Translations under genes and position numbers: made by a program
From: Balneola sp.
GTDB lineage: Bacteria; Bacteroidota; Rhodothermia; Balneolales; Balneolaceae
Assembly (NCBI GenBank): GCA_002694685.1
Contig: NZMW01000012.1
Location: 98,556 to 162,555 of the forward strand
Length of the DNA: 64,000 nucleotides
Direction: 5' to 3'
Notes under the pieces: generated by a model
The model's database searches: none
What the model was told of the DNA's origin: nothing
Seen by the model: the letters and a program-made list of their open reading frames with translations, nothing else
In this document: positions 531 through 49,936 of the stretch, piece by piece
Layout of the letters: every line of letters begins with the position of its first letter
Numbering within the stretch: position 1 is the first letter of the stretch

Positions 531-540
531 TAACCGGTTT
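531..540. promoter_or_regulatory. Motif A operator, imperfect (TAACCGGTTT)
   Basis: 9/10 match to TAACCGGTTA, intergenic, 310 nt upstream of the esterase at 850. Confidence 0.4.
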
Positions 541-689
541 TAAAAGGTTCGCATGATCCAAAAAAGGGCAGATTTCAAGCAATTTTTGCGAGTCAATTTC
601 GAGCTTAATTCCGTTGCGACCTTTGTTCAAAGTCCTAAGAGATCATTTCATTGAGAACAGAATTCGTAAGTTTGTTACTTCCGGGAAGC

Positions 690-726
690 AAAAGCTTTCG
701 ATTATTAATCGAAGGCTTTTTATTAT
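690..726. terminator. Terminator-like hairpin upstream of the esterase gene
   Basis: 14-bp stem AAAAGCTTTCGATT-ATT-AATCGAAGGCTTTT with one G-U pair, A/T-rich on both sides. Confidence 0.55.
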
Positions 727-849
727 GGATTTTCGTTAAGCTTCATGCTACTCTTATAGAAGTTTAATTACGTTCTTCTTCTCTTGAGTATCGAGGACAA
801 AAAATGAGAAGAACTATTTAAGTAGCTCCAATAAAATTGAAATTTAAGC

Positions 850-1803
850 ATGACACATAGGTTGTTTAAGTTTGTTTTGACAGTAATGCTCTTTTTTATA
901 GGGCAAAGTTTACTTGCTCAAGATTTTCCACGAGATACTTCATACACTTTACAAAGTGCTTATCAGAAGTATGTAAAAGAGTATCCCAATATTGCACTTG
1001 TAGATCAGCAATTGGAAGATCAGCTGAAAATTCAAAAAAACATAGTCTACAAGAATACAGGTAATCGAAATCTCCATGTCGATGTTTACCACCCCAAAGA
1101 AATAAATGAACTACTGCCCGCTGTTTTGATTGTTCATGGGGGAGGTTGGATCTCTGGAGATAAATCAATGATGAAGCAAATAGCAATGGAGCTCGCTTTT
1201 CAAGGATATGTAGCGGTAGCTGTAGAATATAGGCTGAGTCCAGAAGCACAATATCCGGCAGCAATCTATGATGTGAAGTCAGCACTAAAGTGGATGCGTG
1301 ATCATTCCTCTGACAATCAAATAGATCCCCATAAAATAGCGGTTATGGGGACGTCAGCTGGGGGACAAATAGCAGCTTTAGTAGCAACTACTCAGAACAA
1401 AGGTCGGTTCGAGGATCCTGCTGATAGCACGAACACAGCAGCTAAAGTTCAGGCATTGGTAGATATTGATGGAGTGCTGGCTTTTATTCACCCAGTTTCA
1501 GAAGAAGGGCGGGTTGCTGGACTTTGGCTGGGCGGAACCCAAATAGAAAAACGTGATACATGGATAGACGCTTCTGCTCTTACCCATGTCAATCGGAATA
1601 CTCCTCCCACCCTTTTTATTGGTAGTGCTTATCCACGATTCCTGGCTGGTCAGAAAGAAATGTCTGCGCTACTGGATAAACATAATATATACAATCAATC
1701 ATACAAGCTGGATGCGCCTCATTCTTTCTGGCTTTTTCATCCTTGGTTTGAGCCGACGATGAGTCATGTGGTGAGCTTTTTAAACGATACATTAAAGAGG
1801 TAG
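850..1803 (+). CDS. Secreted alpha/beta-hydrolase esterase (HSL/BD-FAE-like), candidate pectin esterase
   Basis: Signal peptide (LLA-Q), HGGGW oxyanion motif, GTSAGG nucleophile elbow, C-terminal APHSFW His; located at the edge of a pectin locus. Confidence 0.8.
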   Translation: MTHRLFKFVLTVMLFFIGQSLLAQDFPRDTSYTLQSAYQKYVKEYPNIALVDQQLEDQLKIQKNIVYKNTGNRNLHVDVYHPKEINELLPAVLIVHGGGWISGDKSMMKQIAMELAFQGYVAVAVEYRLSPEAQYPAAIYDVKSALKWMRDHSSDNQIDPHKIAVMGTSAGGQIAALVATTQNKGRFEDPADSTNTAAKVQALVDIDGVLAFIHPVSEEGRVAGLWLGGTQIEKRDTWIDASALTHVNRNTPPTLFIGSAYPRFLAGQKEMSALLDKHNIYNQSYKLDAPHSFWLFHPWFEPTMSHVVSFLNDTLKR

Positions 1804-2013
1804 TAACTCTCGAAAAGTGTTAGTGCCTGTTTGATTTGGTAACCAATCTCCATTCTTCTAGAAAAAAAGTTAAAGTAACTACTTTGATAAGGTTTTTAGA
1901 CGCCGACACCATCACCTAAATTCCCTTCTCGCCCGTGCTATTCGATAAGTGTAATTTTAAATAGCCAATATTATCAAAGGTTTATCATCATTATTGAATA
2001 CCAGTTTCATTTG

Positions 2014-2066
2014 TAATCGGTTTTTTTACATTATTAAGTAATCGGTTAAGTAACTTTGATCGGTTT
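2014..2066. promoter_or_regulatory. Cluster of three motif A operators
   Basis: TAATCGGTTT (2014-2023), TAATCGGTTA (2039-2048, in TTAAGTAATCGGTTAAGTAA) and TGATCGGTTT (2057-2066), just upstream of the ATG at 2116. Confidence 0.75.
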
Positions 2067-2115
2067 AAATCATAGTAGAAATAAAAAGTAGTATTTGTAT
2101 CTGTTGGAGAATGAT

Positions 2116-5100
2116 ATGTATAAGGTGAAATTAGTTATTGGGACGTTCTATTTATCGCTGATATTATCTTTGAACGCCGTGGCTCAGGATGCAGCTTCGG
2201 CAACTTGGCCATTAACAGATCCGGATAATGGTGGAACGGGATTAAGTGTAATAACAGCAGGTCAGCTTAATGCTGAAGATGAATTATTTAGTAATACTGA
2301 GACTAACAATTACTCAGGACCAAATTCGAGTCAGCGGATTCGCATCGAAGGGAATGAGTGGCCTGCAAATCAAACCACAGAAATTGAAGGGGTATATGTT
2401 GAATTTAAAACCTCTCCCAAAGAGGGTTCCTCATTGAGGGTGGATTCCGTTTCTTTTGGTATTGCCGGAGTTAGTATCAATACAATGAAAGCGAATGTGT
2501 ACTACTCTACCAATCCTGCTTTTACCGACAAAACTCAAATTCAATACGAAACTGCAGATGAATCTGGAAATAACTATTTGCAGCGCGATAGTCTATTGTA
2601 TGTAACAGCAACTCCAGGAGTTGAAGTGGGATCTGATGAATCATTTTTTATCCGTATTTATCCCTGGGTAGATAACGATCCAAGTATTCGAACTGGCAAA
2701 TATCTTGCTCTGCAGGATGTAATTATTAGTGGAGAAACCCAAAGTATTCCAGTTGAAGCAGTAGTCGAGTGGCCCCTTGATGAAAGTGAGGATGCTGTTA
2801 TATCAGGAGCGCTCACAGCAACCAGTCAGGCTTACAGCGATGCAATGCAGCTATATAATTTTAAAGAAATTACAAAAGCGGATGGCGGAACTGCATTTGC
2901 CTCTACTGTACAGACGAAAAGCCAGAGCTGGATTGGCTCGGATTCCCCGGTTGACAGTCTATATATACAATATTCTGTGGCTCCCAAATTTGGTGCTACT
3001 TTTTATTCTGATGAGTTTGCGATTTCAATGGGTGCATGGTATTCACAAAACCTGAGGGCTACAGTATATTATTCAAAAGATCCCACCTTTCAGGAGAAGA
3101 AGGTACTTATACCAGATACATCACTATTTGTTGACGATGGTGATAATGGTGGAGCAGCTCTGCTGGAAGCAACTTTAGAAGATACAGTAGAGACTAATGA
3201 AGAGCTTTATATAAGAGTGTATCCCTATAACACTGAAAGTGAGGGTTGGGCAAAGTTAGTTGTCATTGACAGTGTTTCAATTTCAGGTTCTACGGTTGGC
3301 GCAACATCAGAACCTCCTTCTGTGGCCACTTATAACGTAGAAAGTATTTCAACAACTTTTGCTTATAGTGGAGGAAATATAACTACGGACGGTGGTTCGG
3401 AAGTCACTTCACGTGGTGTAGTTTGGAGTACCTCGAGTGAACCAACCACACCTGATGAAAGGACAACAGATGGAACGGGGTCTGGAAGTTTTAGCAGTCG
3501 TTTGATAGGACTCAATTCCGGAACAACTTATTTCTTGCGTGCTTATGCAACTAATGAGGCGGGGACTTCATATGGCCGTGAAATTCAATTTACAACCTTA
3601 GATTCTAAATCAGCCCCTGAAGTTACATCAGCTCCGGTTACTGATATCTTAGTGGAGTCAGCAAAAAGTGGGGGAGAAGTGACCTCATGGGGTGGAGACT
3701 CCGTAACAGTACGAGGTATTGTGTGGAATACGGAAGGAGAACCTACCACCGATGATTTTAAAACTGAAGACGGCAGCGGTTTAGGGTCGTTCGTAAGTGG
3801 AATGTACCCTCTTGATCAAGATACCCGCTACTATGTCAGGGCTTATGCAACCAATAGTATTGGTACAGGATATGGAAGGGAAATGATATTCAAAACGCAA
3901 ACACCTCAACCAGATGTGGATAAAGTTGTTGCAAGCGATGGTAGTGGAGACTACACAACTGTCCAAGCCGCGTTTGATGATGTGCCAGATAATTATACAG
4001 GTATATACACCATCTTTGTGAAAAAGGGTGAGTATTATGAAAAACTCGTACTCGAAGAAGGCAAAGTAAATGTGCAACTGATTGGAGAAGACAGAGACGA
4101 CACTATTATTTGGTATGATGACTATGCAAATATTGCTGGAGGTACTAGTCGGTCTTACAGCGTCGCCATTAATGCAGATGATTTTCTGGCAAAAAATATT
4201 ACGTTCCAAAATGTGATTAAGAATGATAAAACAGAACCAAACCAGCAAGCCGTTGCTTTGGTTACCAATGGAGACCGGCAGGCATTCTACAACGTAAATG
4301 TTTTAGGATTCCAGGACACATATTATGCCCGTGGTTCCAATGGAACAGGCCGGGTTTACTTCAAGAATAGTTATATAGAAGGATCGGTTGATTTTATTTT
4401 TGGGAGAAATATTGTGGTCTTTGATAGCTCACAAATTCATATTAACAGGAATGGAGGCACGCTTACAGCCGCTGCAACAGAACCTGAATCAAAGTTTGGG
4501 TTTGTGTTCATCGATAATATCATCTCTGCAGATTCCATAGGCTTTAACGGAGAACCGATTACAAGCTTTCACCTTGGCCGACCATGGCAAGAATCTCCAA
4601 GAACAGTATTCTTGAACACCTACTATCCAGAATCCCTAAATCCAGAAGGGTGGCTATCGTGGAACGTAGAGCCAGGCCTATATGGAGAATACAATTGCTC
4701 AGGACCTGGCTGTGTAAACTTTGAAAGCAGGGTTGATTTTGCCACTCAGTTGTCTGATCAGGAAGCCGCTGAATACACGCTGGAAAATATTTTTTCGAAA
4801 GAAAGTAACCCCAACTTTGGCCGGGACTGGATGCCTACTCCTGAATTAACCGCTGTGAGTGTGAATAGGCCTTCAAAAGATATTCCGGATAATTTCGAAC
4901 TACATCAAAATTATCCCAACCCATTCAACCCTTCCACCAATATTGCATATTCACTTCCTAAATCTACGCATGTGAAAATGAGTGTATATAATATGTTAGG
5001 GAAAAGGGTTGGTACACTGGTTAATCGCAACCAGAAGGCGGGTCAGTACCTTGTTAACTTCGATGCATCTAATCTAGCAAGTGGTGTCTACCTATATCGG

Positions 5101-5151
5101 CTAGAGACTGCAGGCTTTGCTCAAACCAACAAGATGATTTTGATTAAATAA
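2116..5151 (+). CDS. Modular T9SS-secreted pectin methylesterase: two unknown N-terminal repeat domains + two FN3-like repeats + CE8 + T9SS type-A CTD
   Basis: CE8 motifs QAVAL, QDTYY, DFIFG, LGRPW; two 100-aa FN3-like units (GGxxTxxGG...RAYATNxxGTxYG); [13 protein letters not shown]...KMILIK. The ATG at 2116 is preferred over the TTG at 2095 because it gives a normal signal peptide. Confidence 0.9.
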   Translation: MYKVKLVIGTFYLSLILSLNAVAQDAASATWPLTDPDNGGTGLSVITAGQLNAEDELFSNTETNNYSGPNSSQRIRIEGNEWPANQTTEIEGVYVEFKTSPKEGSSLRVDSVSFGIAGVSINTMKANVYYSTNPAFTDKTQIQYETADESGNNYLQRDSLLYVTATPGVEVGSDESFFIRIYPWVDNDPSIRTGKYLALQDVIISGETQSIPVEAVVEWPLDESEDAVISGALTATSQAYSDAMQLYNFKEITKADGGTAFASTVQTKSQSWIGSDSPVDSLYIQYSVAPKFGATFYSDEFAISMGAWYSQNLRATVYYSKDPTFQEKKVLIPDTSLFVDDGDNGGAALLEATLEDTVETNEELYIRVYPYNTESEGWAKLVVIDSVSISGSTVGATSEPPSVATYNVESISTTFAYSGGNITTDGGSEVTSRGVVWSTSSEPTTPDERTTDGTGSGSFSSRLIGLNSGTTYFLRAYATNEAGTSYGREIQFTTLDSKSAPEVTSAPVTDILVESAKSGGEVTSWGGDSVTVRGIVWNTEGEPTTDDFKTEDGSGLGSFVSGMYPLDQDTRYYVRAYATNSIGTGYGREMIFKTQTPQPDVDKVVASDGSGDYTTVQAAFDDVPDNYTGIYTIFVKKGEYYEKLVLEEGKVNVQLIGEDRDDTIIWYDDYANIAGGTSRSYSVAINADDFLAKNITFQNVIKNDKTEPNQQAVALVTNGDRQAFYNVNVLGFQDTYYARGSNGTGRVYFKNSYIEGSVDFIFGRNIVVFDSSQIHINRNGGTLTAAATEPESKFGFVFIDNIISADSIGFNGEPITSFHLGRPWQESPRTVFLNTYYPESLNPEGWLSWNVEPGLYGEYNCSGPGCVNFESRVDFATQLSDQEAAEYTLENIFSKESNPNFGRDWMPTPELTAVSVNRPSKDIPDNFELHQNYPNPFNPSTNIAYSLPKSTHVKMSVYNMLGKRVGTLVNRNQKAGQYLVNFDASNLASGVYLYRLETAGFAQTNKMILIK

Positions 5152-5373
5152 GGCATTGTTCAGAACCCTTAGTTTTAACTGCTCAGATGGCTAGTATACT
5201 CGCTGTTGGAATTGAAAAGGACAACAGAAGTAAGGTTCAAGAAAAAGGTATAAACCCTTCTAGAATTAGGGGGCCAGTCAGCTTGCATAAATCTTTCTTT
5301 GCCTGAATAAAAAATTTGAACCAGAAATGCGCACATAAAGGGGGAGCGGAAGCGGTTTCAATTCATTTTTAAA

Positions 5374-5383
5374 TAACCGGTTA
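5374..5383. promoter_or_regulatory. Motif A operator (perfect palindrome TAACCGGTTA)
   Basis: AAATAACCGGTTAAGTT in the intergenic region upstream of 5824. Confidence 0.75.
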
Positions 5384-5503
5384 AGTTCCCTTATAAGTAA
5401 TTTAAGGCAGGTCTTATTTTCATTAAGATGTTATTAACAAAGAGGTTAATGAATGTGGTTGTAGTGTGTTCATAACTCCTATCTATCAGCGGTAATTAGA
5501 ATC

Positions 5504-5531: not shown

Positions 5532-5540
5532 CTAATAGGT

Positions 5541-5559
5541 TACTTAACCGATAACTTAA
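5541..5559. promoter_or_regulatory. Motif A operator (TACTTAACCGATAACTTAA)
   Basis: Nearly identical to the sites at 9489-9507 and 49918-49936, including flanks. Confidence 0.8.
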
Positions 5560-5823: not shown

Positions 5824-8800
5824 ATGAAACGGACATCTACTATAATTTTAACGACACTTTTGGTAGCGCTTTTTGCGACTACGGGAGTCATGGCACAAGA
5901 GAACGGGGATTTTCGTTCTACTGCTGATGGCGACTGGAGTACAACAGCTACCTGGCAAACTTATAATGGGACCACCTGGGAAGCAGCAACCGCAGCACCA
6001 GATGGATCTGAAAATATAACCATACTTGATGGTGACTCTGTTAATGTTGCTTCGGGCACAGTAACAATTACTGGCCAAGTTACTGTTGAAGGGACGATAG
6101 CACCACCACTAACAGGAGGTGAACTTACTGCAGACGGTGGTACACTGGTATTTGCTGATGGAGGTATGTATCAGCACGACCGAGACGAGGGTGCTATTCC
6201 CGTAGCCACCTGGGAAGCAGGTTCTACAGCCATGTTTACAGGTTTAGTAACAGGTGAACCGGATGAGATGGACCAGAATTTTCACCATGTGGTTTATAAC
6301 AATGCTGCACAGCTAGAAAACATCAGTTTTGGCTGGGATGATTATACTCTTAATGGTGATCTCACTGTACTGAACTCAAACGGCAAACAATTTCGACTTT
6401 CCTCTGCTGGTGATGAAGGAGATCCTGCTCGCAGTATTACAATTATGGGTAATGTGGTTGTAGATGGCGAAAATGCAGAATTTACTTCAACCGGTTCAGG
6501 AGATATATTTAATTATAACATAGAAGTCATGGGTGACATCGAAGTCATCAATGGAGGCTTTTTATCTACAAGCCGGGGTAGTGGTGGAGCTGCTGTTTGG
6601 ACTCTACATGGCGACTTTACCGTTACAGATGCCAGGATTGGTGAATCAAATATTGAAAAGCATGGACAGAAGAGAAGTTTTGTATTTGCAGGAACCAACC
6701 AAACAATTTCTGCTTCTAACGTAGAAACGGAGAGCGAGCTTTATTACGAAATTAATGCTTCCTCTAATGTAACACTAGCAGCAGGCAGCGTATTTCCTAT
6801 TGATTCTCTGACAGTGGATGGAACTTTGTCTCTCGATGGAGAGCTTGAAGCAGGTGGCCCGGTTGTTCTTAACGGAGGAACAATGACTGTATCAGATGGT
6901 GGTACTTATAATCATGCACATGACGCTGGGGAAATCCCAACGGCAACATGGGCTGATGGTTCTACTGTTTTGTTAACAGGTATTGAAACCAACGATCCAG
7001 ACAATGGCGATCAGGATTTCTTTAACTATACCTGGAATAATGCCGGTCAGATTGAAAACATTAATATAGGATGGGACGACTATACCCTAAGAGGTAATAT
7101 GACGGTTCTTAACACAGCCGGAAATCAGTTCCGATTATCCTCAGCTGGTGATGAAGGTGATCCTGCACGCAGTATCACAATTATGGGTGATGTTGTAGTA
7201 GATGGAGAAACATCCGAATTTACAGCAACCGGATCAGGAGATGTATTTGACTATGATGTTAAAGTTATGGGCGATATCTCTATTGTAAACGGCGGTTTCC
7301 TATCTGTTAGCCGTGGTAGTGGTGGTAGAGCCGTATGGACACTGTATGGCGATATGACCATTAATGGTGGTGAAATTGGTGACTCTGATATCGATAAACA
7401 CGGCCAAACCCGTAGTTTTGTTTTTGCAGCAGATACTGCAAGCGATGGAGTTCCGGGACAGACTATTACAGCTAATAATGTGAGCTATGACTCTGAAGTA
7501 TATTTTGAAATAGCAGACTCTTCAGGAGTGCTACTGGCTTCAGGATCTGATTTTGCATACGAAGGTGTATTCACCAACTATGGTGTATTTGATGTAGATG
7601 GTGATGCAACGCTTACATTTACAGGAGAATCTACGTACGACCACGCTAGAGATGGTGGAGACTTTCCAACGGCTACATGGGCTGAAGGCTCAACAGCCTT
7701 GGTAAGTGGCACCGTAATATCTGCTCCTGGAAATGGTAATCAGGACTTTCATAACCTCGTCATTAACGCTCCTGGTAATCTTGAAAACAATGACCTTGGA
7801 ATGAGAGATAACACTGTCGGAGGTAATATTGATGTAATCAGTACGGGTAATGCCCGCTTCTATCTTTCCAATCCTAGTACTTTTGATACACTCAGCATAA
7901 CTATAATGGGTGATATCAATATGGGAGCGGATGCAGATGCGTTCGCATCTAATGGTACAGGTAGTGCATCAGAAATTAACATCCATCATTATGGAAACAT
8001 AACGGTAGATGGAGGTAACTTTTCGATATCTCGTGGTTCAGGCCCGATAGTAAATTGGTACCTTTATGAAGGTGATCTCACTTTAAATGCCGGTGAGACT
8101 CAAACTTCAAATGCCAGGGCTGGCAACGCATTTATCTTTGCAGGTGAAGAGGTAGTCCAACATTTAGATGTGTCTGCTGATTTTGAAATTTCGCATTTGC
8201 CCATTTTAGTTCAGGAAGGTGCATATTTGGATATGGGCAACAGTAATTTGTCCGAAAGTGGTGAACACTTCACCTTAGAAGCGGGAGGCACGCTTGCTAG
8301 TTCTGACTCTGCAGCCTTCTCTTCAGCGGGGGGAGGAAACCTTGAGTTAGGAGGTTCCGGAGATACTATCCTTTCCCTAAGTTCCGAAGCAAATTATGTA
8401 ATCAATGCTACTGAAGCTCAGTGGACAGGTTTTGCCCTTCCGCTACAGGTAGCTTCTTTAACTATTGATAACGAAGCAGGAGTAACTCAATCCAGAGGAG
8501 TAACGATTAATGAATCCCTAAACCTTAATGCAGGTGTGTTTGATAACACAATTGGATTTAATCTAGGTGAAGATGCAGTCGTAAACTTTGATGGTGGTAG
8601 CTTGCTATTTGCGCTAGGTGCTCCAAGAATTGGAACATTTGCACTTACTTCTCCTGAAGATGGTTTTGCATTAGATCTTACAGGTGATGTAACAACCGAA
8701 GTAGAAATAAGTTGGGAAACACCAAGTGGTCCAGATTCAACTACCTATACATGGCATGCTGATACTGTTGGCGGAGATTTCTCTGACCCATTAGTAAGCC

Positions 8801-9389: not shown

Positions 9390-9488
9390 GCTTTAATAAT
9401 TTTCCAAGAGAGCGATTAACAGCCTATAATAAATCAAAAGGGCAGGGGATATAAGTTTTTTGCAGGATACTTGTCAAAAATGAGGATT

Positions 9489-11874: not shown

Positions 11875-11886
11875 AGGTCGCCTTAA

Positions 11887-39841: not shown

Positions 39842-42088
39842 ATGTTTAATCTTTTCCGTTTAAAATTATGCAAAGCTTTTAGTGGCATCTTTTTAGCAGT
39901 AATGATGACAACATTCATGGCCGTAGATTCATTTGCCCAGCCAGGTGAAGGCTATGTTATCAACGAAGATGATTCACTGGCTCTTGTAGCTTATTATGAG
40001 TCAACAAATGGTGATCAATGGATTGATAACTCTGGTTGGCTCACTGATGCCCCCGTTTACTCTTGGGTTGGTATTGAAGAGGTAGCCAACGTAGCTGGCG
40101 ATGGAGAGCCTGCTGACTGGCGTGTAACAGTGATTGATATGCCTAGAAATAACATGACGGTTCCTGGTCCACTTCCAGCGGACTTGGCAGATCTTGAATT
40201 TCTTGAAGATTTTAAGGCAGATGTGAATTTACACATTGGAGGATTACCACCAGAATTAGCTACTCTTGACAGACTTCAGTTCTTATTGGTGCGAACCAAC
40301 CTATTCACTGGAACAGTTGATTGGGATGTGTTTTCTCAAATGGAGTCTATGCAGCAATTCCGAATTCGTCAGAACTACTTTTCTGGCCCTTTACCTCAAA
40401 CTTTAGGTGGTAATGGTTCTTGGCCCGCACTTACTCGTCTATATGTAGATGACAATCGTTTTACTGGACAAATTCCTGAAGTTCATTCAGAATTGACCAC
40501 ATTAAATCGTGTTTATTTCCATAATAACAGGCTAACCGGACCGATTCCAGATTGGTCAAGTCTTGAAGGTATGGAGTATTACCGTATTGCGAACAATGAT
40601 CTTGAGCCAGGACCGATTCCAGAATGGATATTTGACTCTTGGGGTGAAACACTGATTCGTTTCCAAATTCAAAATACCAACCGAACAGGTTCTCTTTCTC
40701 CGAAACTTGCCCAAATGGAAGCACTTGAGCAATTTATTATTGGGGGCCAGGGAGACACTATTGGTGAGGGCGAAACAACGGACGATATACCGGATCTATC
40801 AGTGATGCCTAGCCTGAGAAGAATTAACTTCTATGGCGGTGGATGGACAGGTGGACTTCCTACATGGGTTGGTGATGTTGCTAATCTTGAAGACGTCCAC
40901 TTCGCAAATATGAATATTACAGGTACTATCCCAGCTGAATGGGCAAATGCCGATTTAATTAATATTCACCTTGAAGACCTTAACATTGAAGGCGGACTAC
41001 CAGCAGCATTTTCTGTTGTGAATAGTATCCAATCTATCGTACTCATCGACAATCCAAACATGACAGTAGGTGAAATTCCTGATTGGATCGGTGGAAGCAT
41101 TGGAAACGTAACTGAGCTAGTACTTGAAGATGTTGGTGTAACAGGGGATATCTCTAACAATAACCTGATTAACCTTCAACTTGAATCCTTGAATCTGAGT
41201 GATAATCCTGAATTAACAGGATCTTTACCAAGCTGGTTTGAAACTAAAAATTGGAGCTTACTTGAACTTTCCAGAACTGGAATTGGGATCAGTTCAATAC
41301 CATCATGGTTAGGAGACCAGGATAATCTTTCTTACTTAGGTTTAGGAGGATTAGGACTTGAAGGCGAAATACCATCATTTTTCGGTGAAGGTTTGATTGC
41401 TGTAAATCTAACCACTTTAGCACTTGATGATAACAACCTTACAGGAAGTATCCCTGCTTCTTTAGGAAATACAATTCAGCTTGATTCCCTTAACCTATCA
41501 AACAATCAGCTATCGGGCGACATACCTGCCTCACTTGCTGATGCAGGACGAGTAACTGATGACCTGAGCGTTCTAGGTGCTCTGCAGCTTTCAGGGAATG
41601 CAGACCTCTCCGGAGAGCTGCCAATTGGATTGACAGATGCTACTTTCATGAGAGTTCTAGAGTACGATGGAACTAATATCTGTGAGCCAAGTGACGGAGC
41701 TTTTGAAACATGGATTGATGGAATTCCAGATTTTGCAGCTGAAAGCTATCCAATAGCCTATTATTCAGTATCAAGAACAAACGTCTCATGTGGAACGGTT
41801 TCTGTAGAAAATGATGGAACCCCGAATAAGTTCCAGTTACAACAGAACTATCCGAATCCATTTAACCCAACTACAAGCATTAAATACGAGATTCCTGAAG
41901 CAGCAACTGTTTCGCTTACCGTTTACAACATGCTTGGACAAGTAGTAGCTACTCTGGTTAATGACTTTAAAGCTGCAGGTAATTATGAAGTGAATTTTGA
42001 TGCTTCAAACTTTGCAAGTGGAAGTTATATCTACCGGCTTGAAGCTGGAGATAGAGTCTCTACTCAACAGATGATGCTGATTAAATAG
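39842..42088 (+). CDS. T9SS-secreted leucine-rich-repeat protein
   Basis: N-cap [15 protein letters not shown]....GW; plant-like LRR units LxLxxNxLxGxIPxxL; C-cap NICEP...W; [13 protein letters not shown]...MMLIK. The start may be 39794. Confidence 0.88.
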
Positions 42089-42143
42089 AACTTTAGTCAT
42101 GATGTTGTTGAGCTTTAATCATCTCAGCAATTCTAAAAAGATC

Positions 42144-42180
42144 ACCCGTATAGTTCGAAAAAGCTATACGGGTTTTTTTT
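42144..42180 (+). terminator. Intrinsic terminator after the LRR gene
   Basis: ACCCGTATAG / CTATACGGGT stem followed by a T run. Confidence 0.9.
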
Positions 42181-42223
42181 AGTAACACATATTATTTTAA
42201 TAATAAAAATCACACATCTTCTC

Positions 42224-43138
42224 ATGAAATTAGATTATCGGTTTTATTTACTACTACCCGTTATTGTTACTTTAGTTCTTTCTGGAGTCTTCACTGGTGG
42301 TCACCTGGTATCATGGGGTGGGGATAGAAGTGAACAGGTTTCTAAAACTCCATCTGGAGAAGACTTTATAGATATTTCAGCCGGATACTTGCATAGCGTT
42401 GCCCTAAAAAAAGATGGAAGCATTTATGCTTGGGGATCAGACGGTGATGGTCAAGTTTCAAAAGCTCCAAAAACTAAAAATTTCACAGATGTAGCAGCCG
42501 GAAGCAATCATAGCGTTGCTTTGACTGAAGAAGGCACCGTTGTTAGCTGGGGATGGGATTATTCGATAAATGAAGAATATGCAAGGGGTACCATACCCAA
42601 AAGAAATGGATTTGTAGCAGTTTCAGCAGGCGGTAACCATAGCCTTGCCTTACATGAAGATGGAAGTATACATGCATGGGGATGGAATACAAATGGCTTA
42701 ATAAGTGATACTCCTGAAGGAAATGATTTTGTGGCTATTTCTGCAGGTACCTACCACAACTTAGCTCTTAAGGGTGACGGAACGGTAGTAGCTTGGGGAG
42801 ACGACATGTTTGGTTCAGTTGATGATACGCCAACGGATAAAAATTATACCGCAATTTCAGCAGGAGCCCGTCATAGCCTTGCACTCAGAAAAGATGGAAG
42901 CATTGCGGCATGGGGCTGGGACCTAAAAAAAGAAGTAAGTTCAACACCAACCGAAAACGGTTTTACATCTATTTCAGCGGGTTATTCCCATAGCATAGCA
43001 CTTAAAGAGGATGGTTCATTAGTAGCCTGGGGGTGGGAGCGAAACGATGAGGGACAAATCAGCGAGCTACCAGAGGGTAATGGATTTACTCGAATTTCTG
43101 CCAGTGACTTTCATAACCTGGCGATACGCTCTAATTAA
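42224..43138 (+). CDS. RCC1/BLIP-II-like seven-repeat beta-propeller with hydrophobic N-terminus
   Basis: Seven ~39-aa units G(S/T)xxAWG...F..ISAG..HS.AL..D making up the whole mature protein. Confidence 0.9.
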   Translation: MKLDYRFYLLLPVIVTLVLSGVFTGGHLVSWGGDRSEQVSKTPSGEDFIDISAGYLHSVALKKDGSIYAWGSDGDGQVSKAPKTKNFTDVAAGSNHSVALTEEGTVVSWGWDYSINEEYARGTIPKRNGFVAVSAGGNHSLALHEDGSIHAWGWNTNGLISDTPEGNDFVAISAGTYHNLALKGDGTVVAWGDDMFGSVDDTPTDKNYTAISAGARHSLALRKDGSIAAWGWDLKKEVSSTPTENGFTSISAGYSHSIALKEDGSLVAWGWERNDEGQISELPEGNGFTRISASDFHNLAIRSN

Positions 43139-43149
43139 AACCTTAAACT

Positions 43150-44088
43150 TTGCCTGATGTGAAAGCGACCAGACTACTTCTAACTATACTATTTACCACA
43201 GGTATTTCTCTTCATTCTGGTTCTCTTCAAGCTCAACAATCCGTTTCACTTTGGCCTGAAGATGAACTTCCAAACTCAAAAGGATTATCTATTCAGGATA
43301 GTGTGAAGAACGACCGCATATATCTCAATAAATATCCGGAGATGTATAGCTTTCATCCCGCAAAAGAAGAAAATAGTGGAGCGGCCGTTTTGATTTTTCC
43401 CAGTGGAGGCTACCATCATTTAACGTATGATCTAGGCGGCTTTCAGCTGGCTAAGTGGTTCAATACGCTCGGTGTCCACAGCTTTGTGGTTAACTACCGG
43501 TTACCTCTTTCACCCGACCTGGTTAAGCGAGAAATTGCTCCTTTACAAGATGCTCAAAGAGCAATGCGATTAGTACGTTCAATGGCCGAAGAGCTTGGAA
43601 TCGATCCTGACAAAATTGGAGTGATGGGGACCTCAGCTGGAGGTCATCTGGCATCCACTATCGGTACCTTTCATGAAGATGTTTCCGCTTTTGGTGACTC
43701 ACTCGATCAATATTCTTACCGGCCAGATTTTATGGTGATGATTTCTCCGGTAATTACATTTGGTGAGTATGCGCATGAGGGGAGTAGGATGAACCTTTTG
43801 GGCGAAAACCCGTCACCCCAACTCATAAACAAATATTCAACAGAGCTGCAGGTTGATAAGGATACACCACCGGCTTTTCTGGGACACGCCGCAAATGATG
43901 AATCGGTTCACCCGATGAACAGCATCATTTTTTACGAAGCGTTGCTACAGCACGGGAATACGGCTTCCAGCCTGCATATCTTTCCGCAAGGAGGACACAG
44001 CATTGGGCTTGTAGGAAACCCCGGTTCAACACAAATGTGGTCGGATTTATGTGAGGCATGGCTTAAGGAATCGGGTTTTATAGAGTGA
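43150..44088 (+). CDS. Secreted alpha/beta-hydrolase esterase (BD-FAE/xylan-esterase-like)
   Basis: IFPSGGY, GTSAGG, HAANDESV (Asp), GGHSIG (His); TTG start, signal ends LQA-Q. Confidence 0.85.
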   Translation: MPDVKATRLLLTILFTTGISLHSGSLQAQQSVSLWPEDELPNSKGLSIQDSVKNDRIYLNKYPEMYSFHPAKEENSGAAVLIFPSGGYHHLTYDLGGFQLAKWFNTLGVHSFVVNYRLPLSPDLVKREIAPLQDAQRAMRLVRSMAEELGIDPDKIGVMGTSAGGHLASTIGTFHEDVSAFGDSLDQYSYRPDFMVMISPVITFGEYAHEGSRMNLLGENPSPQLINKYSTELQVDKDTPPAFLGHAANDESVHPMNSIIFYEALLQHGNTASSLHIFPQGGHSIGLVGNPGSTQMWSDLCEAWLKESGFIE

Positions 44089-44118
44089 AATTGTATTCAT
44101 TCAGAATTCAAATCACAC

Positions 44119-44154
44119 AAAAAAGCCTCAGGCACATTTAAGCACCTGAGGCTT
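44119..44154 (-). terminator. Terminator between the convergent esterase and GH28 genes (T run on minus strand)
   Basis: AAGCCTCAGG / CCTGAGGCTT stem preceded by an A run on the + strand. Confidence 0.8.
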
Positions 44155-44175
44155 GGATCTACTATGGGAAACAGT

Positions 44176-45765
44176 TTACCAGGCCTGAACCTCTGGCGAT
44201 TCTTTAACGATATCTTTCGTTAAGCCATCCTTAAATTCAATTTGATTATTAGGGAAGTCATCTGTGAAAATTGCTCCGGTATGACGTCCTTGAAGAGTAA
44301 AAGGCTTTCCTGAAACTCCATCATTTAGAGTCAGGTTATTAAGGAATATTTCATATACATCTTCAGCAATCATCGCTTGCTCTTCAGAGTTAATGGTTAC
44401 ATTCGTCATCTTCAGTCCCTTAACACGCGTTATTCGAGCTCCTTTTTCAGAATTAATGACGTTGATGTTTTCGAGGTGAATATTTTCGAGCCATTTTTCT
44501 GGAAGACCTACAAGTTCAATCGCAGTTGGTACACCGTCAATTTCCACATCTTTAATATGGACGTTTCTCATTAGAGGAGAAGGACCTGTAACTCCAGGGC
44601 CTGTATAAAACGTATTAAAGTTTATAGCCTGATACGTGATATTTCGCATCTTTATATTTTCGATGAAGATGTTTTCGACGACATTACCACGTCCACGTTC
44701 GGTTTTAAATCGAATGCCTCGGTCACTTCCATCAAAAAGGGCATTGTGGACATAAACATTTCGGATTCCTCCCGATGTTTCACTTCCAAATACAACGCCT
44801 CCACTTCCTGTGCGAACTCTTCGGGCTTCAAAATTTCTAACTACTACGTTTTGTGTAGGAATGTTGATTTCCAATGCCTCTTCATTGAGCCCGGATTTGA
44901 GCACAACGGCATCATCGCCCGTTTCAAAATGATTATACTCAACAAGTACATCCTGTGAGGAATCAAGAACTACACCATCCCCATTTGGAGCTTTAAGACT
45001 ATTGATATTTACTCCACGAATAATAATTCGCTTGCTATAGATCATATGCAAATTCCACATAGGAGAGTCAAGCATTGAGATATCTTCAATTAAAATATCC
45101 TCGGACTCCCAAAAAACAACAAAACTGGGACGCATACCTTCCATTCCTGAACCCTTTCCAAAGTCTCGCCTGGATAAAGGTACTTTTGAGGCCGCAGCTC
45201 GGGGTGGAGTACCATGCTCTTCATACCATTCCCACCAGTGATCAGCCTGAGCATTTAGAAGCCCTGTTCCCGTGATCGATACGTTCTTCACTTTGTATGC
45301 ATAGATCATAGGAGAGTAGTTGTAGGCTTCTACACCTTCATGGCGCTGCCTTACAACCGGCAAATAATCTTCTTTATCAGTACTGAATAATACTTCTGAC
45401 CCTTCAGCTAAGTGAAGATCCATATTACTTTTAAGGTGAATAGGACCTGTAAGCCATTTTCCCTTTGGAATGAGAATTTGCCCGCCACCAGCTTCCGCTG
45501 CAGCCTCAACAGCCCGATGGATGGCATCCGTATTTTTGAAGTCTGAAGATTCATCCATAGTCTGAGCGCCATAATCCCGAATGTCAAATACCTGATCAGG
45601 TATTTCCGGGCGCTCCAATTCAGCCATTTCGAAAGGTGCATCCATTGGCGCAATATTCTCAGGTTTTTCTCCCATCTGAGCAAAGGCCGTTGCTGGAAAT
45701 ATAATGAGAAGTAAAAGTATAGATACTTTTGTTAAAGCTTCTTTTAATGCGTGGGTATAACTCAT
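44176..45765 (-). CDS. GH28 (exo-)polygalacturonase-like enzyme
   Basis: LTGPIHLKSN..LHL..G, PNGDG, TGDDAVVLKSG, GGVVFGSE, RGIRFKT; signal peptide; ATG 45765 preferred. Confidence 0.9.
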   Translation of the reverse strand: MSYTHALKEALTKVSILLLLIIFPATAFAQMGEKPENIAPMDAPFEMAELERPEIPDQVFDIRDYGAQTMDESSDFKNTDAIHRAVEAAAEAGGGQILIPKGKWLTGPIHLKSNMDLHLAEGSEVLFSTDKEDYLPVVRQRHEGVEAYNYSPMIYAYKVKNVSITGTGLLNAQADHWWEWYEEHGTPPRAAASKVPLSRRDFGKGSGMEGMRPSFVVFWESEDILIEDISMLDSPMWNLHMIYSKRIIIRGVNINSLKAPNGDGVVLDSSQDVLVEYNHFETGDDAVVLKSGLNEEALEINIPTQNVVVRNFEARRVRTGSGGVVFGSETSGGIRNVYVHNALFDGSDRGIRFKTERGRGNVVENIFIENIKMRNITYQAINFNTFYTGPGVTGPSPLMRNVHIKDVEIDGVPTAIELVGLPEKWLENIHLENINVINSEKGARITRVKGLKMTNVTINSEEQAMIAEDVYEIFLNNLTLNDGVSGKPFTLQGRHTGAIFTDDFPNNQIEFKDGLTKDIVKESPEVQAW

Positions 45766-45910
45766 AGTAAATACGTTGGGCATGGTTAGGACTTTTAGGT
45801 TAAATGGTTTTGGACTTCAGGTAATGTCTTCATCAAGTATCCAAGAGCCATTTTTGGTTGAAGAAATATCAGATTATAAGACTGGATTAATCATTTAAAC
45901 CAATTTTAAG

Positions 45911-45950
45911 TTACCGGTTAAATTATATATATTAAAAAGCGGTTTTGCAA
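45911..45950 (-). promoter_or_regulatory. sigma70 promoter TTGCAA-N17-TATAAT for GH28 with a motif A operator over the start site
   Basis: Minus strand reads TTGCAA(45950-45945)-17 nt-TATAAT(45927-45922)-T-TAACCGGTAA(45920-45911). Confidence 0.85.
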
Positions 45951-46269
45951 CCGTTGGAGTCAAAAAGTGGATGTTAATCAAATACTGAAAGTGGGGTGCT
46001 AAATCCATTGCTTCAGGATTAAGGTTTACATTTACTTTCGGAGCTGCTTCAACACTTGCTGTAATTTAAGGATGATAAGAAATGAGGTCAGATCATTAAT
46101 AACGAACAGCTGTTTAAGTATTATGCGTTATTGTCAGATCTCAAAAGTTATTTTAAAGGAATCCCATACCAGCTTAACGAATACAAAATAATCCCTTTTC
46201 AATTACTTACCTTCAGTTGGTTTTTTATAGCCGAATTGAATGATCATTTTAAAATAGATAAAGATAATA

Positions 46270-47052
46270 ATGAACTATATAGAAAAGCTTTTCTCACTCA
46301 AAGGTAAGGTAGCAGTTGTTGTTGGGGGAAGTGGAGAACTAGGGGGAGAAATGTCATTCGCCCTTTCCCAGGCAGGGGCCAAAGTTGCAGTATCGTATGC
46401 CGGCAATAAGGAAGGAGCTACCGAACAAATTTCCCGTATTGAAAGCGCTGGTGGAACAGCAATGGCATGTCAGATAAATGCCATTAGCGAGGACTCAATA
46501 AAGTCAGCTATTTCGAAAGTGATTGATGAATGGGGGCACATAGATATTTTAGTGAATGCTCCGGGAGTTAATTCCACTACGCCTATTATGGATATCACCG
46601 AAGAAGAATGGAATAAAATACTTGATATTAATTTGAAAGGCGCATTTCTGACGAGTCGTATTGTAGGTGAACATATGATTGAGAGGGGTGAGGGGGGAAG
46701 TATCATTAATATCTCTTCTGCATCTTCAGATATCCCTCTTTCTAAGGTATTTACATATAGCATTTCGAAAGCTGGAATGAATAATATGACTCGCTTCTTA
46801 GCTCGCGAATGGGCCCCGCATGATATCAGGGTTAATGCTATTATCCCCGGATTCTTCCCAGCAGAACAAAACAGGGAAATTCTTACGGAAGAACGAACGG
46901 AGTCTATATTTGGTCACACTCCTATGGACCGATTTGGTGAAGCAGAAGAACTTTCGGGAGCCGTGGTATGGCTGGCTTCAAAAAATGCTTCCTCTTTTGT
47001 GACCGGGTCTATGGTGACCGTTGATGGAGGCTTCACCGCAACAACAATCTAA
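46270..47052 (+). CDS. uxuB: SDR-type D-mannonate oxidoreductase (fructuronate reductase)
   Basis: GGSGELG, YSISK, IPGFFPAEQNR motif typical of SDR mannonate reductases; directly upstream of uxaC. Confidence 0.75.
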   Translation: MNYIEKLFSLKGKVAVVVGGSGELGGEMSFALSQAGAKVAVSYAGNKEGATEQISRIESAGGTAMACQINAISEDSIKSAISKVIDEWGHIDILVNAPGVNSTTPIMDITEEEWNKILDINLKGAFLTSRIVGEHMIERGEGGSIINISSASSDIPLSKVFTYSISKAGMNNMTRFLAREWAPHDIRVNAIIPGFFPAEQNREILTEERTESIFGHTPMDRFGEAEELSGAVVWLASKNASSFVTGSMVTVDGGFTATTI

Positions 47053-47152
47053 AATCAGTAATAGAATCTGCGTCACTATTCGTGTGATAGTGGCTCATAA
47101 ATATTTAAAAAAAATTCGAGACGTCTAAAGTAGCTTAAAAACAAACTGACCT

Positions 47153-48571
47153 ATGAAAAAACCATTTATACATCAGGATTTTTTACTTCAATCGGAAGCA
47201 GCAAAAAAGCTCTATCATAACTATTCTGCTGATCAGCCTATTATTGATTATCACTGCCATTTACCACCTCAGGAAATAGCAGAGAATAAGAACTTTGAAA
47301 ATATCACAAAGATCTGGCTCGATGGTGACCATTATAAGTGGAGAGCAATGCGTACCTGTGGGGTAGATGAGAAGTTTATTACCGGTTCCGCATCCGATAA
47401 AGAGAAGTTTTTGAAGTGGGCTGAAACCGTTCCTAAAACATTGAAAAATCCCTTGTACCACTGGACTCATATGGAACTCAAGAATCCGTTTGGTATTACT
47501 GAACAATTGTTAGACGGAGATTCTGCTGAGAAAATTTGGGATAAATGTAATGAAATGCTTCAGTCTCCAGAATTTTCTACCCGTGGGTTACTTAAGCAAA
47601 ATAATGTGAAGGTTGTAGCAACAACGGATGATCCAACGGATAAATTAGAATTTCATACTCAGTTAAGAGATGAGGGTGAAGATGCCTTTAAAATGGTTCC
47701 TACTTTCCGGCCTGATCGGGGAATGGAAATTGAAAATGGAAAGGAATGGCTGAGCTGGGTTGAAAAACTGTCAGATGTGACCGGAGTAAGTATTTCGAGC
47801 TTCGATGATTTTCTGGAAGCTCTTCAGCAACGTCATGACTTCTTTGATGAAATGGGATGCCGTGCTTCCGATCATGGTACCGACAGACCTTATTCTGATG
47901 ACTTTACCGACAAAGAAATTGCTTCGATTTTCGAGAAGGTATTGGGAGGAGAGTCACCAACAGAAGAAGAAACTCGAAAATTTAAATCTGCCTTTTTGTA
48001 TCACTGCGGTGTGATGGATGCGAAGAAAGGATGGGTCTATCAACTTCATGTTGGAGCCATCCGGAATAATAATTCCCGGATGATGAAAGAATTAGGCCGC
48101 GACACCGGATTTGATTCTATTGGTGATTTTGATCTTGCACAACCTTTAGCACATCTTTTAAACAGGTTGGATTCTGAAGATCAACTTCCTAAAGTGATAC
48201 TGTACAATAGCAATCCCAGAGATAATGAATTAATGTCGACTATGATTGGAAATTTCCAGGATGGTTCGGTAGCTGGAAAATTGCAGCATGGTCCGCCATG
48301 GTGGTTTCTCGACCAAAAGGATGGAATTGAAGCTCACATCGAGTCACTGTCAAATATGGGAGTTTTGAGTCAGCTTATTGGGATGACTACAGACTCCAGA
48401 AGCTTTCTTTCGTTTCCTCGACATGAATATTACCGGCGAGTTTTATGCAATGTGCTTGGTGATGATATTGAGAAAGGCTTATTGCCGTCCAACTTTGACT
48501 TAGTTGGAAATATGGCGAAGGATATCAGTTTTAAAAATGCTAATACTTTCTTTGGTTTTAAGGCAACCTAG
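47153..48571 (+). CDS. uxaC: Uronate isomerase
   Basis: PIIDYHCHL, GDHYKWRAMR, NPLYHWTHMEL, TTDDPTD, PTFRPD, WWFLDQ, TDSRSFLSFPRHEYYRR. Confidence 0.98.
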   Translation: MKKPFIHQDFLLQSEAAKKLYHNYSADQPIIDYHCHLPPQEIAENKNFENITKIWLDGDHYKWRAMRTCGVDEKFITGSASDKEKFLKWAETVPKTLKNPLYHWTHMELKNPFGITEQLLDGDSAEKIWDKCNEMLQSPEFSTRGLLKQNNVKVVATTDDPTDKLEFHTQLRDEGEDAFKMVPTFRPDRGMEIENGKEWLSWVEKLSDVTGVSISSFDDFLEALQQRHDFFDEMGCRASDHGTDRPYSDDFTDKEIASIFEKVLGGESPTEEETRKFKSAFLYHCGVMDAKKGWVYQLHVGAIRNNNSRMMKELGRDTGFDSIGDFDLAQPLAHLLNRLDSEDQLPKVILYNSNPRDNELMSTMIGNFQDGSVAGKLQHGPPWWFLDQKDGIEAHIESLSNMGVLSQLIGMTTDSRSFLSFPRHEYYRRVLCNVLGDDIEKGLLPSNFDLVGNMAKDISFKNANTFFGFKAT

Positions 48572-48764
48572 AAGTATAGTCTTAGTCAATTTGAATTAGA
48601 GGTGTAACTTATAGTAGAAGTCAAGTGTGAAGTTGGCTTATCATATAAATTACAGCGGGTTATGAATGTTTTGAATTTATTAAATTTGTACCATAACCAG
48701 ATAGTATAAATGTATCGAGCTTCTTTATGTGGGTATATATTAGCTCAGAACTAAATCCTATGAA

Positions 48765-49754
48765 ATGAAAAATGTTACTCTGCAGGATATTGCCGATGAA
48801 TTAAATCTGACGAAAGTCAGTATCTCTAAGGCTCTTCGTGACCATCCTGATATATCCGAAGGAACACGGATAAAAGTCAAAGAGATGGCTAAGAAGATGA
48901 AGTATCGGCCAAATTTGGTTGCCCGTTCTTTGACGTCCTCAAAATCGAAAACTATAGGGTTAATCATCCCAAAAATAGCCCATTACTTTTTCGCTTCAGT
49001 AGTTGAATCCATTTACAAAACAGCTTTTGATCATGGCTATGAGGTAATTATTGGTGTTTCTTTGGAGGATGAGAAACTGGAGAAAATTCATATTGAAACT
49101 ATGTTACAGATGAGGGTAGATGGCTTGCTTATATCCACGACCGAGCAGACCAAAGATCTAGAACGATTTGAGGTGGTTAAAGATATGGGTATTAATCTGG
49201 TATTCTTTGATCGGGGATTTAATGATTCAGGCTTTAGCTATATAAAAGCCGAAGATAGAAACAGTGCACGGCAGGGAGTTACCTATTTAATAGAACAGGG
49301 TTGCACTAATATTGCTCACTTATCAGGTTTTGATTCTGTAGATATTGGTCGAAATCGTAGATTAGGCTATGAAGATGCTATGAAGGAAGCAGGTATAGAG
49401 ATTAACCCTGACGCTATTATTGAAGGAGGATATAACGAAGAGGCTGGCTACAATAGCTTCAAGAGATTAGTCGAATCTAGCGGAGTGCCGGAAGCCGTGT
49501 TTACTGTAACCTATCCAGTGGGTTTGGGAGCATTAAAATACATGAATGAGCATGACATTGATCCTAAAACAGTAAAAATTCTAAGCTTTGGCAAAAGTGA
49601 TTTTAATAAATATCTGACTTCACCTTTTACCTGTATTGATCAGCCTACAAAATCGTTAGGTAGACGCGCAGTGAAGCAGTTACTTTCTGAGATAAATGAG
49701 GAAGGGACAAGTACCCCCGTTTTGACCGAATTAGCTTGCAAGATATCTATTTAA
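48765..49754 (+). CDS. LacI-family transcriptional regulator (ExuR/UxaR-like by context)
   Basis: VTLQDIADELNLTKVSISKAL HTH, YRPNLVARSL hinge; lies between uxaC and uxaB. Confidence 0.93.
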   Translation: MKNVTLQDIADELNLTKVSISKALRDHPDISEGTRIKVKEMAKKMKYRPNLVARSLTSSKSKTIGLIIPKIAHYFFASVVESIYKTAFDHGYEVIIGVSLEDEKLEKIHIETMLQMRVDGLLISTTEQTKDLERFEVVKDMGINLVFFDRGFNDSGFSYIKAEDRNSARQGVTYLIEQGCTNIAHLSGFDSVDIGRNRRLGYEDAMKEAGIEINPDAIIEGGYNEEAGYNSFKRLVESSGVPEAVFTVTYPVGLGALKYMNEHDIDPKTVKILSFGKSDFNKYLTSPFTCIDQPTKSLGRRAVKQLLSEINEEGTSTPVLTELACKISI

Positions 49755-49881
49755 GAATGACGGCAAATAACGGGTATATAGTGCTATTTTTATGCTAATC
49801 AGCCGATACCACCAAATTAGTTAGTACAATTTCAGAAAATTTTACTTAACAACTTAAATCGGCTTTATTTGCACTTTTTGA

Positions 49882-49936
49882 TTGAATTAGACCTGCTTTT
49901 CCTTTACAATACGCATCTACTTAACCGATTACTTAA
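49882..49936 (+). promoter_or_regulatory. sigma70 promoter TTGAAT-N17-TACAAT for uxaB-uxaA with a motif A operator at the start site
   Basis: TTGAAT 49882-49887, TACAAT 49905-49910, TACTTAACCGATTACTTAA 49918-49936. Confidence 0.82.

Follow-up and report, generated by a model that had tools for sequence, protein, structure and literature searches.

The 64,000-nt stretch of DNA analysed here (the window; C9:98556-162555 of a 3.95-Mb Balneola sp. genome with 17 contigs and 41% G+C) carries a pectin and hexuronate locus that spans about 850 to 53027 and in which a short palindrome, TAAYCGRTWA (motif A), recurs between genes. The question raised by this locus is which regulator reads the motif and how much of the locus it governs. 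The original prediction was that of a single locus-wide regulon under one repressor, most likely the LacI-family protein encoded at 48765 (hereafter LacI-2, 48765-49754). We find that motif A is very probably the operator of LacI-2, an attribution that draws on the uniqueness and conservation of the sites, their co-occurrence with LacI-2, the exclusion of the second LacI-family protein of the locus (LacI-1, 16563) and the recognition-helix residues. The central block of the locus has a different operator, motif B. The closest named relatives of the genome are Gracilimonas metagenome-assembled genomes of the family Balneolaceae, and gene identities in the window come from Pfam and NCBIfam annotation (Table 1).

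Exact matches to TAAYCGRTWA are located at 2039, 5374, 5545, 9493, 21296, 29095, 36671, 45911 and 49922. Counted by strand, there are 14 matches in the window against 1.19 expected from shuffles, and none of 100 shuffles reached 14. Each of the nine sites lies between open reading frames (ORFs), as first described; that at 36671 touches the first TTG of its ORF, for which the in-frame ATG at 36695 is the likelier start. Twelve copies had initially been listed, among which these nine are exact, those at 531 and 2014 carry one mismatch, and that at 2057 fails even when one mismatch is allowed. The last three were dropped as operators on their matrix scores (Table 1). Genome-wide, 70 distinct 10-mer matches are present in 3.95 Mb, nine of them in the window, and each kb of intergenic DNA holds 1.27 matches within the locus versus 0.024 elsewhere (53-fold; Poisson P = 2.7e-13), so that the motif is far from equally frequent in unrelated intergenic DNA.

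Extended on both sides, the nine sites form a CG-centred palindrome of 20 bp, TTAmkTwAyCGrTwAmkTAA, and 45 distinct sites from relatives yield the consensus TTACTTAACCGGTTAAGTAA, with T6, A8, C10, G11, T13 and A15 invariant. With its 20 nt, motif A has the usual form of LacI-family sites, which are as a rule palindromes of even length (16-22 nt) around a central CG (PMC4052901). On a 20-bp position weight matrix (PWM) the nine sites score 20.9-26.3 bits. When each was scored with a matrix built from the other eight, 8 of 9 stood above every other position of the genome, the exception being the site at 5369, for which one outside position scores as high. The best positions outside the locus reach at most 16.9 bits and lie within unrelated coding ORFs; five of them considered as further regulon members (C12:23627, C14:100923, C9:82529, C1:598835 and C1:296198) were rejected, each being inside such an ORF. 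Because the next-best genome positions sit in unrelated coding ORFs, the motif A regulon is predicted to be confined to the pectin locus.

The 329-aa LacI-2 protein has a PF00356 helix-turn-helix (HTH) domain spanning residues 5-50 (30.3 bits, cut-off 27), and its effector part matches Peripla_BP_1, Peripla_BP_3 and Peripla_BP_4. Among solved structures it aligns best, over its full length, with CcpA (E = 2.6e-37) and PurR (E = 3e-35). Its hinge YRPNLVARSLTS aligns with YRPNAVARGLAS of CcpA with the Leu present, and is nearly invariant in orthologues, with rare substitutions; in the structures of LacI, PurR and CcpA, from which the role is taken, this Leu inserts at the central CpG. Orthologues share the recognition helix LTKVS(I/V)SKALR, with only L/I and T/S changes in its first two residues. 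Neither LacI-1 nor LacI-2 matches an NCBIfam equivalog at cut-off.

Orthologues of LacI-2 (at least 55% identity and E <=1e-115, paralogues being at most 40% identical) were found in about 41 of 201 sampled Balneolaceae genomes, and those of LacI-1 in 41 genomes, a set partly different from the former. For 20 genomes representing several genera of the family, we retrieved the 20 kb surrounding the LacI-2 orthologue. Motif A sites of at least 17 bits are present at 17 of these 20 loci (33 sites in 395 kb), and sites of at least 15.5 bits at 19, with none of at least 17 bits in 65 kb of loci harboring only LacI-1 or in 80 kb of flanks outside the pectin locus. Within the genus, matches to the 20-mer pattern average 5.1 per genome with LacI-2 versus 1.5 without (Mann-Whitney P = 0.0009), and a reversed-pattern control gave no difference in these counts. 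Counting TTANNTWAYCGRTWANNTAA across the family with one mismatch allowed gave an informative signal inside the genus but too much noise across genera, and the locus-level scans took its place. In distant genera the neighbours of LacI-2 are GFO/IDH/MocA oxidoreductases, a 3-keto-disaccharide hydrolase, SusC/SusD and FG-GAP/ASPIC proteins, and a motif A site is still found upstream of the oxidoreductase-lacI-2 operon. Six such loci (L047, L049, L051, L053, L054 and L058) encode LacI-2 orthologues of 55-63% identity, co-oriented behind the oxidoreductases and the 3-keto-disaccharide hydrolase. Judged from these neighbourhoods, the constant partner of motif A is the regulator gene lacI-2, not the pectin genes, and the repressor-operator pair seems to be re-used in other Balneolaceae genera for a different, possibly oxidative, sugar pathway.

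Several points weigh against LacI-2 as the protein that reads motif A in this way. The PWM was trained on the window's own sites, which is mitigated by the leave-one-out scores and by the sites of relatives. No site reaches 17 bits at three of the LacI-2 loci, one of which is near a contig end. For LacI sites, which mostly occupy positions -140 to -30 relative to the start codon, four of the ten site-to-gene distances are unusually great: 435, 264, 344 and 151 nt, counted from the end of the site to the start codon. Measured from site centre, about half of the site-gene pairs fall within this range and the others are 161-445 nt upstream. Neither TATAAT nor TTGACA is enriched upstream of genes genome-wide. 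The nine genomes of the genus that have LacI-1 are exactly those that have LacI-2. Finally, G039 (L063, G039:C14) harbors a 25-bit motif A site, TTAAGTTATCGGTTAAGTAA, between two kdgK genes, and no LacI-2 orthologue was detected in that genome (best match 36% identity); the site is either a relic, or the LacI-2 gene lies in an assembly gap.

The last two points would also suit binding of motif A by LacI-1, or by both LacI proteins interchangeably. Both regulators are encoded in the locus, motifs A and B share an AAnCGnTT core, the GH88 operon of G094 has a B site where other genomes have A, and G118 has a weak A-like site inside its kdu operon. Because the two proteins co-occur within the genus, discrimination between them rests on other genera, where LacI-1-only genomes (G077, G095 and G018) keep motif B and show no motif A over 20 kb, and where G171 has LacI-2 and two strong motif A sites without a LacI-1 orthologue. 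Moreover, the recognition helices differ (LTKVS(I/V)SKALR in LacI-2 versus TASTVSRAL in LacI-1, with KVS(I/V)SK facing ASTVSR), as do the hinges (YRPNLVARSL versus YQPNSIAAAL), each being conserved within its own group, and the motif B site scores only 6.7 bits on the motif A model, all of which makes a role of LacI-1 at motif A very unlikely. A transcription factor encoded elsewhere, with lacI-2 linked to the motif merely through shared sugar-acid loci, would account for the site that persists in G039, the binding of LacI-2 to motif A being a prediction only. Such a factor is improbable, since motif A follows lacI-2 into loci whose genes are unrelated to the pectin genes, stands immediately upstream of lacI-2-containing operons in distant relatives, and has the even 20-bp form with central CG that is a LacI-family signature (PMC4052901). 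A third reading, in which the copies would have no regulatory role and represent either a short dispersed repeat or an AT-rich palindrome clustered by chance, is scarcely credible: motif A is indeed AT-rich like intergenic DNA, and the near-identical 20-mers at four sites could reflect duplication, but only 20 bp are common to sites with otherwise unrelated flanks, the 53-fold density argues against chance, and across genera the sites persist before orthologous genes within sequence that has otherwise diverged completely. LacI-2 remains the favoured regulator of motif A.

The regulon of LacI-2 does not extend over the whole locus. Motif B (TGyAATCGATTrCA) is likewise a CG-centred palindrome, placed before kduI (20677-20690), kdgK (16504-16517) and the glyoxalase-fold gene (20833-20846). 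It is kept before the kduI-to-LacI-1 operon in most fetched LacI-1 loci, including the three genomes without LacI-2, and LacI-1 orthologues at fetched loci are always alongside motif B, never with motif A alone. Because LacI-1 loci conserve motif B and the regulator helices differ, the 50-kb locus is best read from its sequence as two nested LacI regulons, not one. The 2-keto-3-deoxygluconate (KDG) branch, with kduI, kduD, kdgK, uxuA, kdgA and the tripartite ATP-independent periplasmic (TRAP) transporter, would be under the separate repressor LacI-1 via motif B. The description of the motif A regulon as locus-wide was in this respect overstated, the block from kduI to the TRAP genes, LacI-1 included (10576-20655), being preceded by motif B.

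The motif A regulon comprises about 27 genes in nine inferred transcription units. Its predicted members are the secreted pectinesterase and pectate-lyase-like proteins, three TonB-dependent receptors (TBDRs) with partners that are secreted by the type IX secretion system (T9SS) or have leucine-rich repeats (LRR) or RCC1 repeats, GH28, the GH88-to-UxaE operon, the operon of a short-chain dehydrogenase/reductase (SDR) with uxaC and lacI-2, uxaB-uxaA, a fructose-1,6-bisphosphatase (FBPase) and the 5824 protein. Secreted enzymes had been named as targets, which applies to the T9SS pectinesterase among others; the esterase at 850 is not shown to belong, because copy 531 is not a credible operator. 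Co-transcription in the GH88 operon is taken from orientation and spacing only. No SusD gene is present within the window.

Table 1. Operators, genes and candidate promoters of the pectin and hexuronate locus (window coordinates; scores in bits on the 20-bp motif A matrix)
Feature	Position	Strand	Relation to genes or operators	Score or annotation
Operator A1 TTAAGTAATCGGTTAAGTAA	2034-2053		41 nt before ORF start of T9SS pectinesterase (2095)	26.3; leave-one-out 25.4, no genome position as high
Operator A2 TTAAATAACCGGTTAAGTTC	5369-5388		distal site, 5824 gene	21.8; leave-one-out 17.1
Operator A3 TTACTTAACCGATAACTTAA	5540-5559		proximal site, 5824 gene	24.6
Operator A4 TTACTTAATCGGTAACTTAA	9488-9507		52 nt before fbp (9560)	24.6
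Operator A5 TTAAGTTACCGGTTAAAATA	21291-21310		64 nt before GH88 operon (21375-29019)	20.9
Operator A6 CAGTTTAACCGGTTAAGTAA	29090-29109		151 nt before TBDR1 (29261)	22.4
Operator A7 AAATTTAACCGGTTAAGTTG	36666-36685		just before TBDR3 (probable ATG 36695)	21.3
Operator A8 TTAAGTTACCGGTTAAATTA	45906-45925		divergent region, GH28 (-) and SDR-uxaC-lacI-2 (+)	24.6
Operator A9 CTACTTAACCGATTACTTAA	49917-49936		23 nt before uxaB (49960), 162 nt past lacI-2 stop	24.8
Copy 531 TAACCGGTTT	531-540		one mismatch; unsupported as operator	6.1 (20-mer)
Copies 2014 and 2057	2014-2066		flanking A1; unsupported as full operators	8.0 and -4.6
Motif B operator TGTAATCGATTGCA	20677-20690		21 nt before kduI (start 20655, minus strand)	
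Esterase	850			
T9SS-secreted pectinesterase (CE8)	2095-5151	+	operator A1 upstream	Pfam Pectinesterase and Por_Secre_tail
1153-aa T9SS protein with SusE-like domain (5824 gene)	5824-9285	+	operators A2 and A3	Pfam SusE and Por_Secre_tail
Class I FBPase (fbp)	9560-10570	+	operator A4	Pfam FBPase
Block dctMQP, kdgA, uxuA, kdgK, lacI-1, DUF4861, kduD, kduI	10576-20655	-		
lacI-1, second LacI-family regulator	16563-17600	-	inside kduI-to-TRAP operon; outside motif A regulon	
Glyoxalase-fold gene	20883			
Inferred operon GH88, PelZ-like lyase, GH43, GDSL esterase, pectinesterase, UxaE	21375-29019	+	operator A5	
Inferred operon TBDR1, TBDR2, T9SS PelZ-like protein	29261-36570	+	operator A6	
Inferred operon TBDR3, LRR-T9SS protein, RCC1-repeat protein, esterase	36683-44088	+	operator A7	
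GH28 polygalacturonase	44176-45783	-	operator A8, overlapping candidate -10 box	
Inferred operon SDR (mannonate-oxidoreductase-like), uxaC, lacI-2	46270-49754	+	operator A8, 344 nt upstream	
lacI-2, LacI-family regulator, 329 aa	48765-49754	+		PF00356 HTH and Peripla_BP domains
Operon uxaB (tagaturonate reductase), uxaA (altronate dehydratase)	49960-53027	+	operator A9	NCBIfam NF002969; Pfam
Candidate GH28 promoter TTGCAA-17-TATAAT	45922-45950	-	-10 box overlaps A8	consensus scan, 10/12 matches
Candidate uxaB promoter TTGAAT-17-TACAAT	49882-49910	+	ends 6 nt before A9	consensus scan, 9/12 matches; weak

Site positions and targets were compared in three congeners (G094, G134 and G085; LacI-2 identity 76-84%). 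Despite rearrangements, motif A is found in them upstream of the orthologues of GH28, SDR-uxaC, TBDR1 (where A6 is kept in all three), TBDR3 and the 5824 gene. Two of these assignments span junctions between fetched pieces, namely TBDR3 in G094, where a 27-bit site lies at the corresponding position and the orthologue presumably runs off the end of the piece (the sites in G134 and G085 being directly assigned), and the 5824 orthologue in G085, whose site is in the adjoining piece (those of G094 and G134 being upstream). Membership of the 5824 gene is thereby supported in the three congeners examined, and the earlier assignment of the 5824 and LRR genes to pectin use is backed, their regulon membership being conserved across species. 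The uxaB site (A9) is at the same place in G094 and G152, and the stretches fetched for G134 and G085 contain no uxaB orthologue. For fbp, a 27-bit site lies directly upstream in G134, and in G094 and G085 the gene is located behind the 5824 orthologue in the same orientation.

Two targets differ between species. The GH88 operon has motif A in the window genome, G134, G085 and G118 and motif B in G094 (L072), where it is divergent from kduI with one motif B site for both; this comparison suggests that the operon moved between the two LacI regulons, a case of regulon rewiring. In congeners, a periplasmic PL2 pectate lyase (PF06917) lies between GH28 and the SDR gene (L001:5712-7463), with a second motif A site just before the SDR gene. 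The window genome lacks this lyase gene entirely, a search having found no remnant of it (the corresponding interval is 45926-46269), and a single operator is left there, at the distance from SDR-uxaC-lacI-2 given in Table 1.

The annotation of single genes adds some detail. The uxaB-uxaA assignment to NF002969 has 591 bits against a 359-bit cut-off, and a Cus-type efflux system comes after uxaA. The genome encodes two class I FBPases and no GlpX, the other copy being at C3:556723-557286. With its own motif A operator, the window fbp looks like a gluconeogenic paralogue dedicated to the pectin regulon, and such an enzyme would make sense because galacturonate enters metabolism at pyruvate and glyceraldehyde-3-phosphate.

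As for the architecture of the operators, the shared extended flanks reported earlier are present as described, TTACT-core-CTTAA being common to 5540, 9488 and 49917 and reversed at 2034; outside the 20 bp, the flanks of the motif A sites are unrelated. In these four operators (A1, A3, A4 and A9; 2034-2053, 5540-5559, 9488-9507 and 49917-49936) positions 4-5 and 16-17 are non-palindromic, and each contains a direct repeat, ACTTAA...ACTTAA or TTAAGT...TTAAGT, with a period of 12. Seven of the nine sites combine one TTACTTAACC-type half with one TTAAGTwAyC-type half, and the symmetric ones are the two TBDR sites. The paired sites A2 and A3 are 171 bp apart, centre to centre, in a 670-bp intergenic region, and 169 bp apart in G094 (L073:13320-13508). 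Bearing on this spacing, the tetramerisation helix of E. coli LacI (360 aa) is located at its C-terminal end, and LacI-2, with 329 aa, is the shorter protein. Downstream of A6, a possible second regulatory element is CTGGAAGCGCTTTG, about 40 nt before the TBDR1 start codon (29215-29228), which is kept in G094 although the sequence around it diverges. A similar core also occurs far from this family: Vibrio rumoiensis (L008:3519-3563) has two GTTACCGGTAAC palindromes at a distance of about 5 kb from a remote homologue of LacI (23% identity). They represent a LacI operator unrelated to motif A and show that the core by itself lacks specificity.

Statements on promoters rest on two loci, GH28 and uxaB, at which the original prediction placed a sigma70 -10 box directly before the operator. 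Taken literally, that statement is correct: at GH28, TATAAT (45922-45927, minus strand) overlaps the site, and at uxaB, TACAAT ends 6 nt before the site at 49917. In an alignment of the 170 nt upstream of GH28 from eight genomes, the sole conserved block is TTGCAA-17-TATAAT with the operator, the flanks being divergent, whereas the uxaB promoter is conserved among close relatives only; conservation thus backs the first and leaves the second tentative. A sigma-70 consensus scan of 44000-53500 gave 22 hits against 23.5 in shuffles, that is, no excess, and the Bacteroidetes-type TAnnTTTG is mildly enriched upstream of genes (210 versus 144 in shuffles). The operator over the GH28 -10 hexamer fits occlusion of RNA polymerase.

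In the proposed mechanism, a LacI-2 dimer would read the two half-sites with its HTH domains and place its hinge helices at the central CpG. Without inducer it would block nine transcription units served from eight intergenic regions. At GH28, RNA polymerase would be excluded by the operator lying over the -10 box, at uxaB the operator would roughly cover the transcription start, and sites far upstream (151-435 nt) or near the start codon could act by occlusion or as a roadblock. The repressor is assumed to be released by a cytoplasmic product of pectin degradation, the best guess being galacturonate or tagaturonate, and with the SDR-uxaC-lacI-2 operon among its targets LacI-2 would be autoregulated. 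What we infer from the DNA is that LacI-2 binds these sites, that it represses rather than activates, which inducer acts on it, and where the operons begin and end.

These results propose a map, open to testing, of how a 50-kb locus for pectin and hexuronate use is regulated. Through conserved regulon membership, they tie the 1153-aa SusE-like T9SS protein, the LRR-T9SS protein and the RCC1-repeat protein to pectin use. They also suggest that, in this branch of the Fibrobacteres-Chlorobi-Bacteroidetes (FCB) group, outer-membrane uptake and secreted enzymes can come under the control of a LacI repressor. Being compact, well defined and also orthogonal to motif B, the operator-repressor pair could serve as a genetic part. 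A broader view, which we advance tentatively and hold to fall somewhat short of probable, is that a LacI-type repressor is the master switch of the whole T9SS-reliant pectin system in Balneolaceae, in place of a hybrid two-component system, SusR or an extracytoplasmic function (ECF) sigma factor, the usual regulators of Bacteroidota polysaccharide loci; that it is nested with a KDG-branch LacI regulon; that GH88-type operons switch operators between species; and that the pair moved to oxidoreductase and SusCD loci. In the literature on Gracilimonas and pectin, covered through titles and abstracts for the Gracilimonas papers, and on Bacteroidetes LacI regulators and galacturonate, we found no description of a regulon of this kind in the Balneolaceae lineage.

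Among known regulators, CcpA and PurR (1rzr, 1zvv and 1bdh) resemble LacI-2 in having an HTH domain, a hinge helix with Leu, a two-lobe effector domain and CG-centred palindromic operators. They differ from it as global or purine regulators with other effectors, limited identity and differing recognition-helix residues. In Dickeya and Pectobacterium, KdgR (IclR family), and in E. coli, ExuR and UxuR (GntR family), are repressors of secreted pectinases, uptake and hexuronate/KDG catabolism that are released by pectin intermediates. These belong to different protein families with different operators, and share with LacI-2 the circuit logic alone. LacI-family repressors of Proteobacteria such as SuxR govern TonB-dependent uptake together with catabolic genes. 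The control of TBDRs is alike in SuxR and LacI-2, whereas substrate, phylum and operator sequence differ. SuxR is the regulator of the Xanthomonas sucrose locus of carbohydrate utilization with TonB-dependent receptors (CUT). The name SuxR is among those listed in PMC4052901.

The nearest comparison is with Bacteroides. Six LacI orthologous groups are known for glucuronate and galacturonate, including ExuR, KdgR, UxaR and UxuR (PMC4052901), and cytoplasmic uronate catabolism of Bacteroides is predicted to be under the LacI-family UxaR (BT0824), KdgR, UxuR and UxmR (Ravcheev et al. 2013, PMC3878776; 2014, PMC4052901), with pectin polysaccharide utilization loci, the machinery of the outer membrane and the cell exterior, assigned to hybrid two-component systems (PMC3878776). 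The Balneolaceae lie outside these two studies. As in the present locus, several paralogous LacI repressors of Bacteroides are predicted to split galacturonate/glucuronate catabolism and the KDG branch, with even CG-centred palindromes as operators and local regulons deduced by comparative genomics. By functional analogy to Bacteroides only, LacI-2 with motif A may be given a UxaR-like role and LacI-1 with motif B a KdgR-like role. Unlike the Bacteroides LacI regulons, which cover mainly cytoplasmic steps of monosaccharide metabolism, motif A also stands before T9SS enzymes, three TBDRs and an FBPase. The motif A regulon is an ordinary kind of local sugar regulon in a little-studied lineage.

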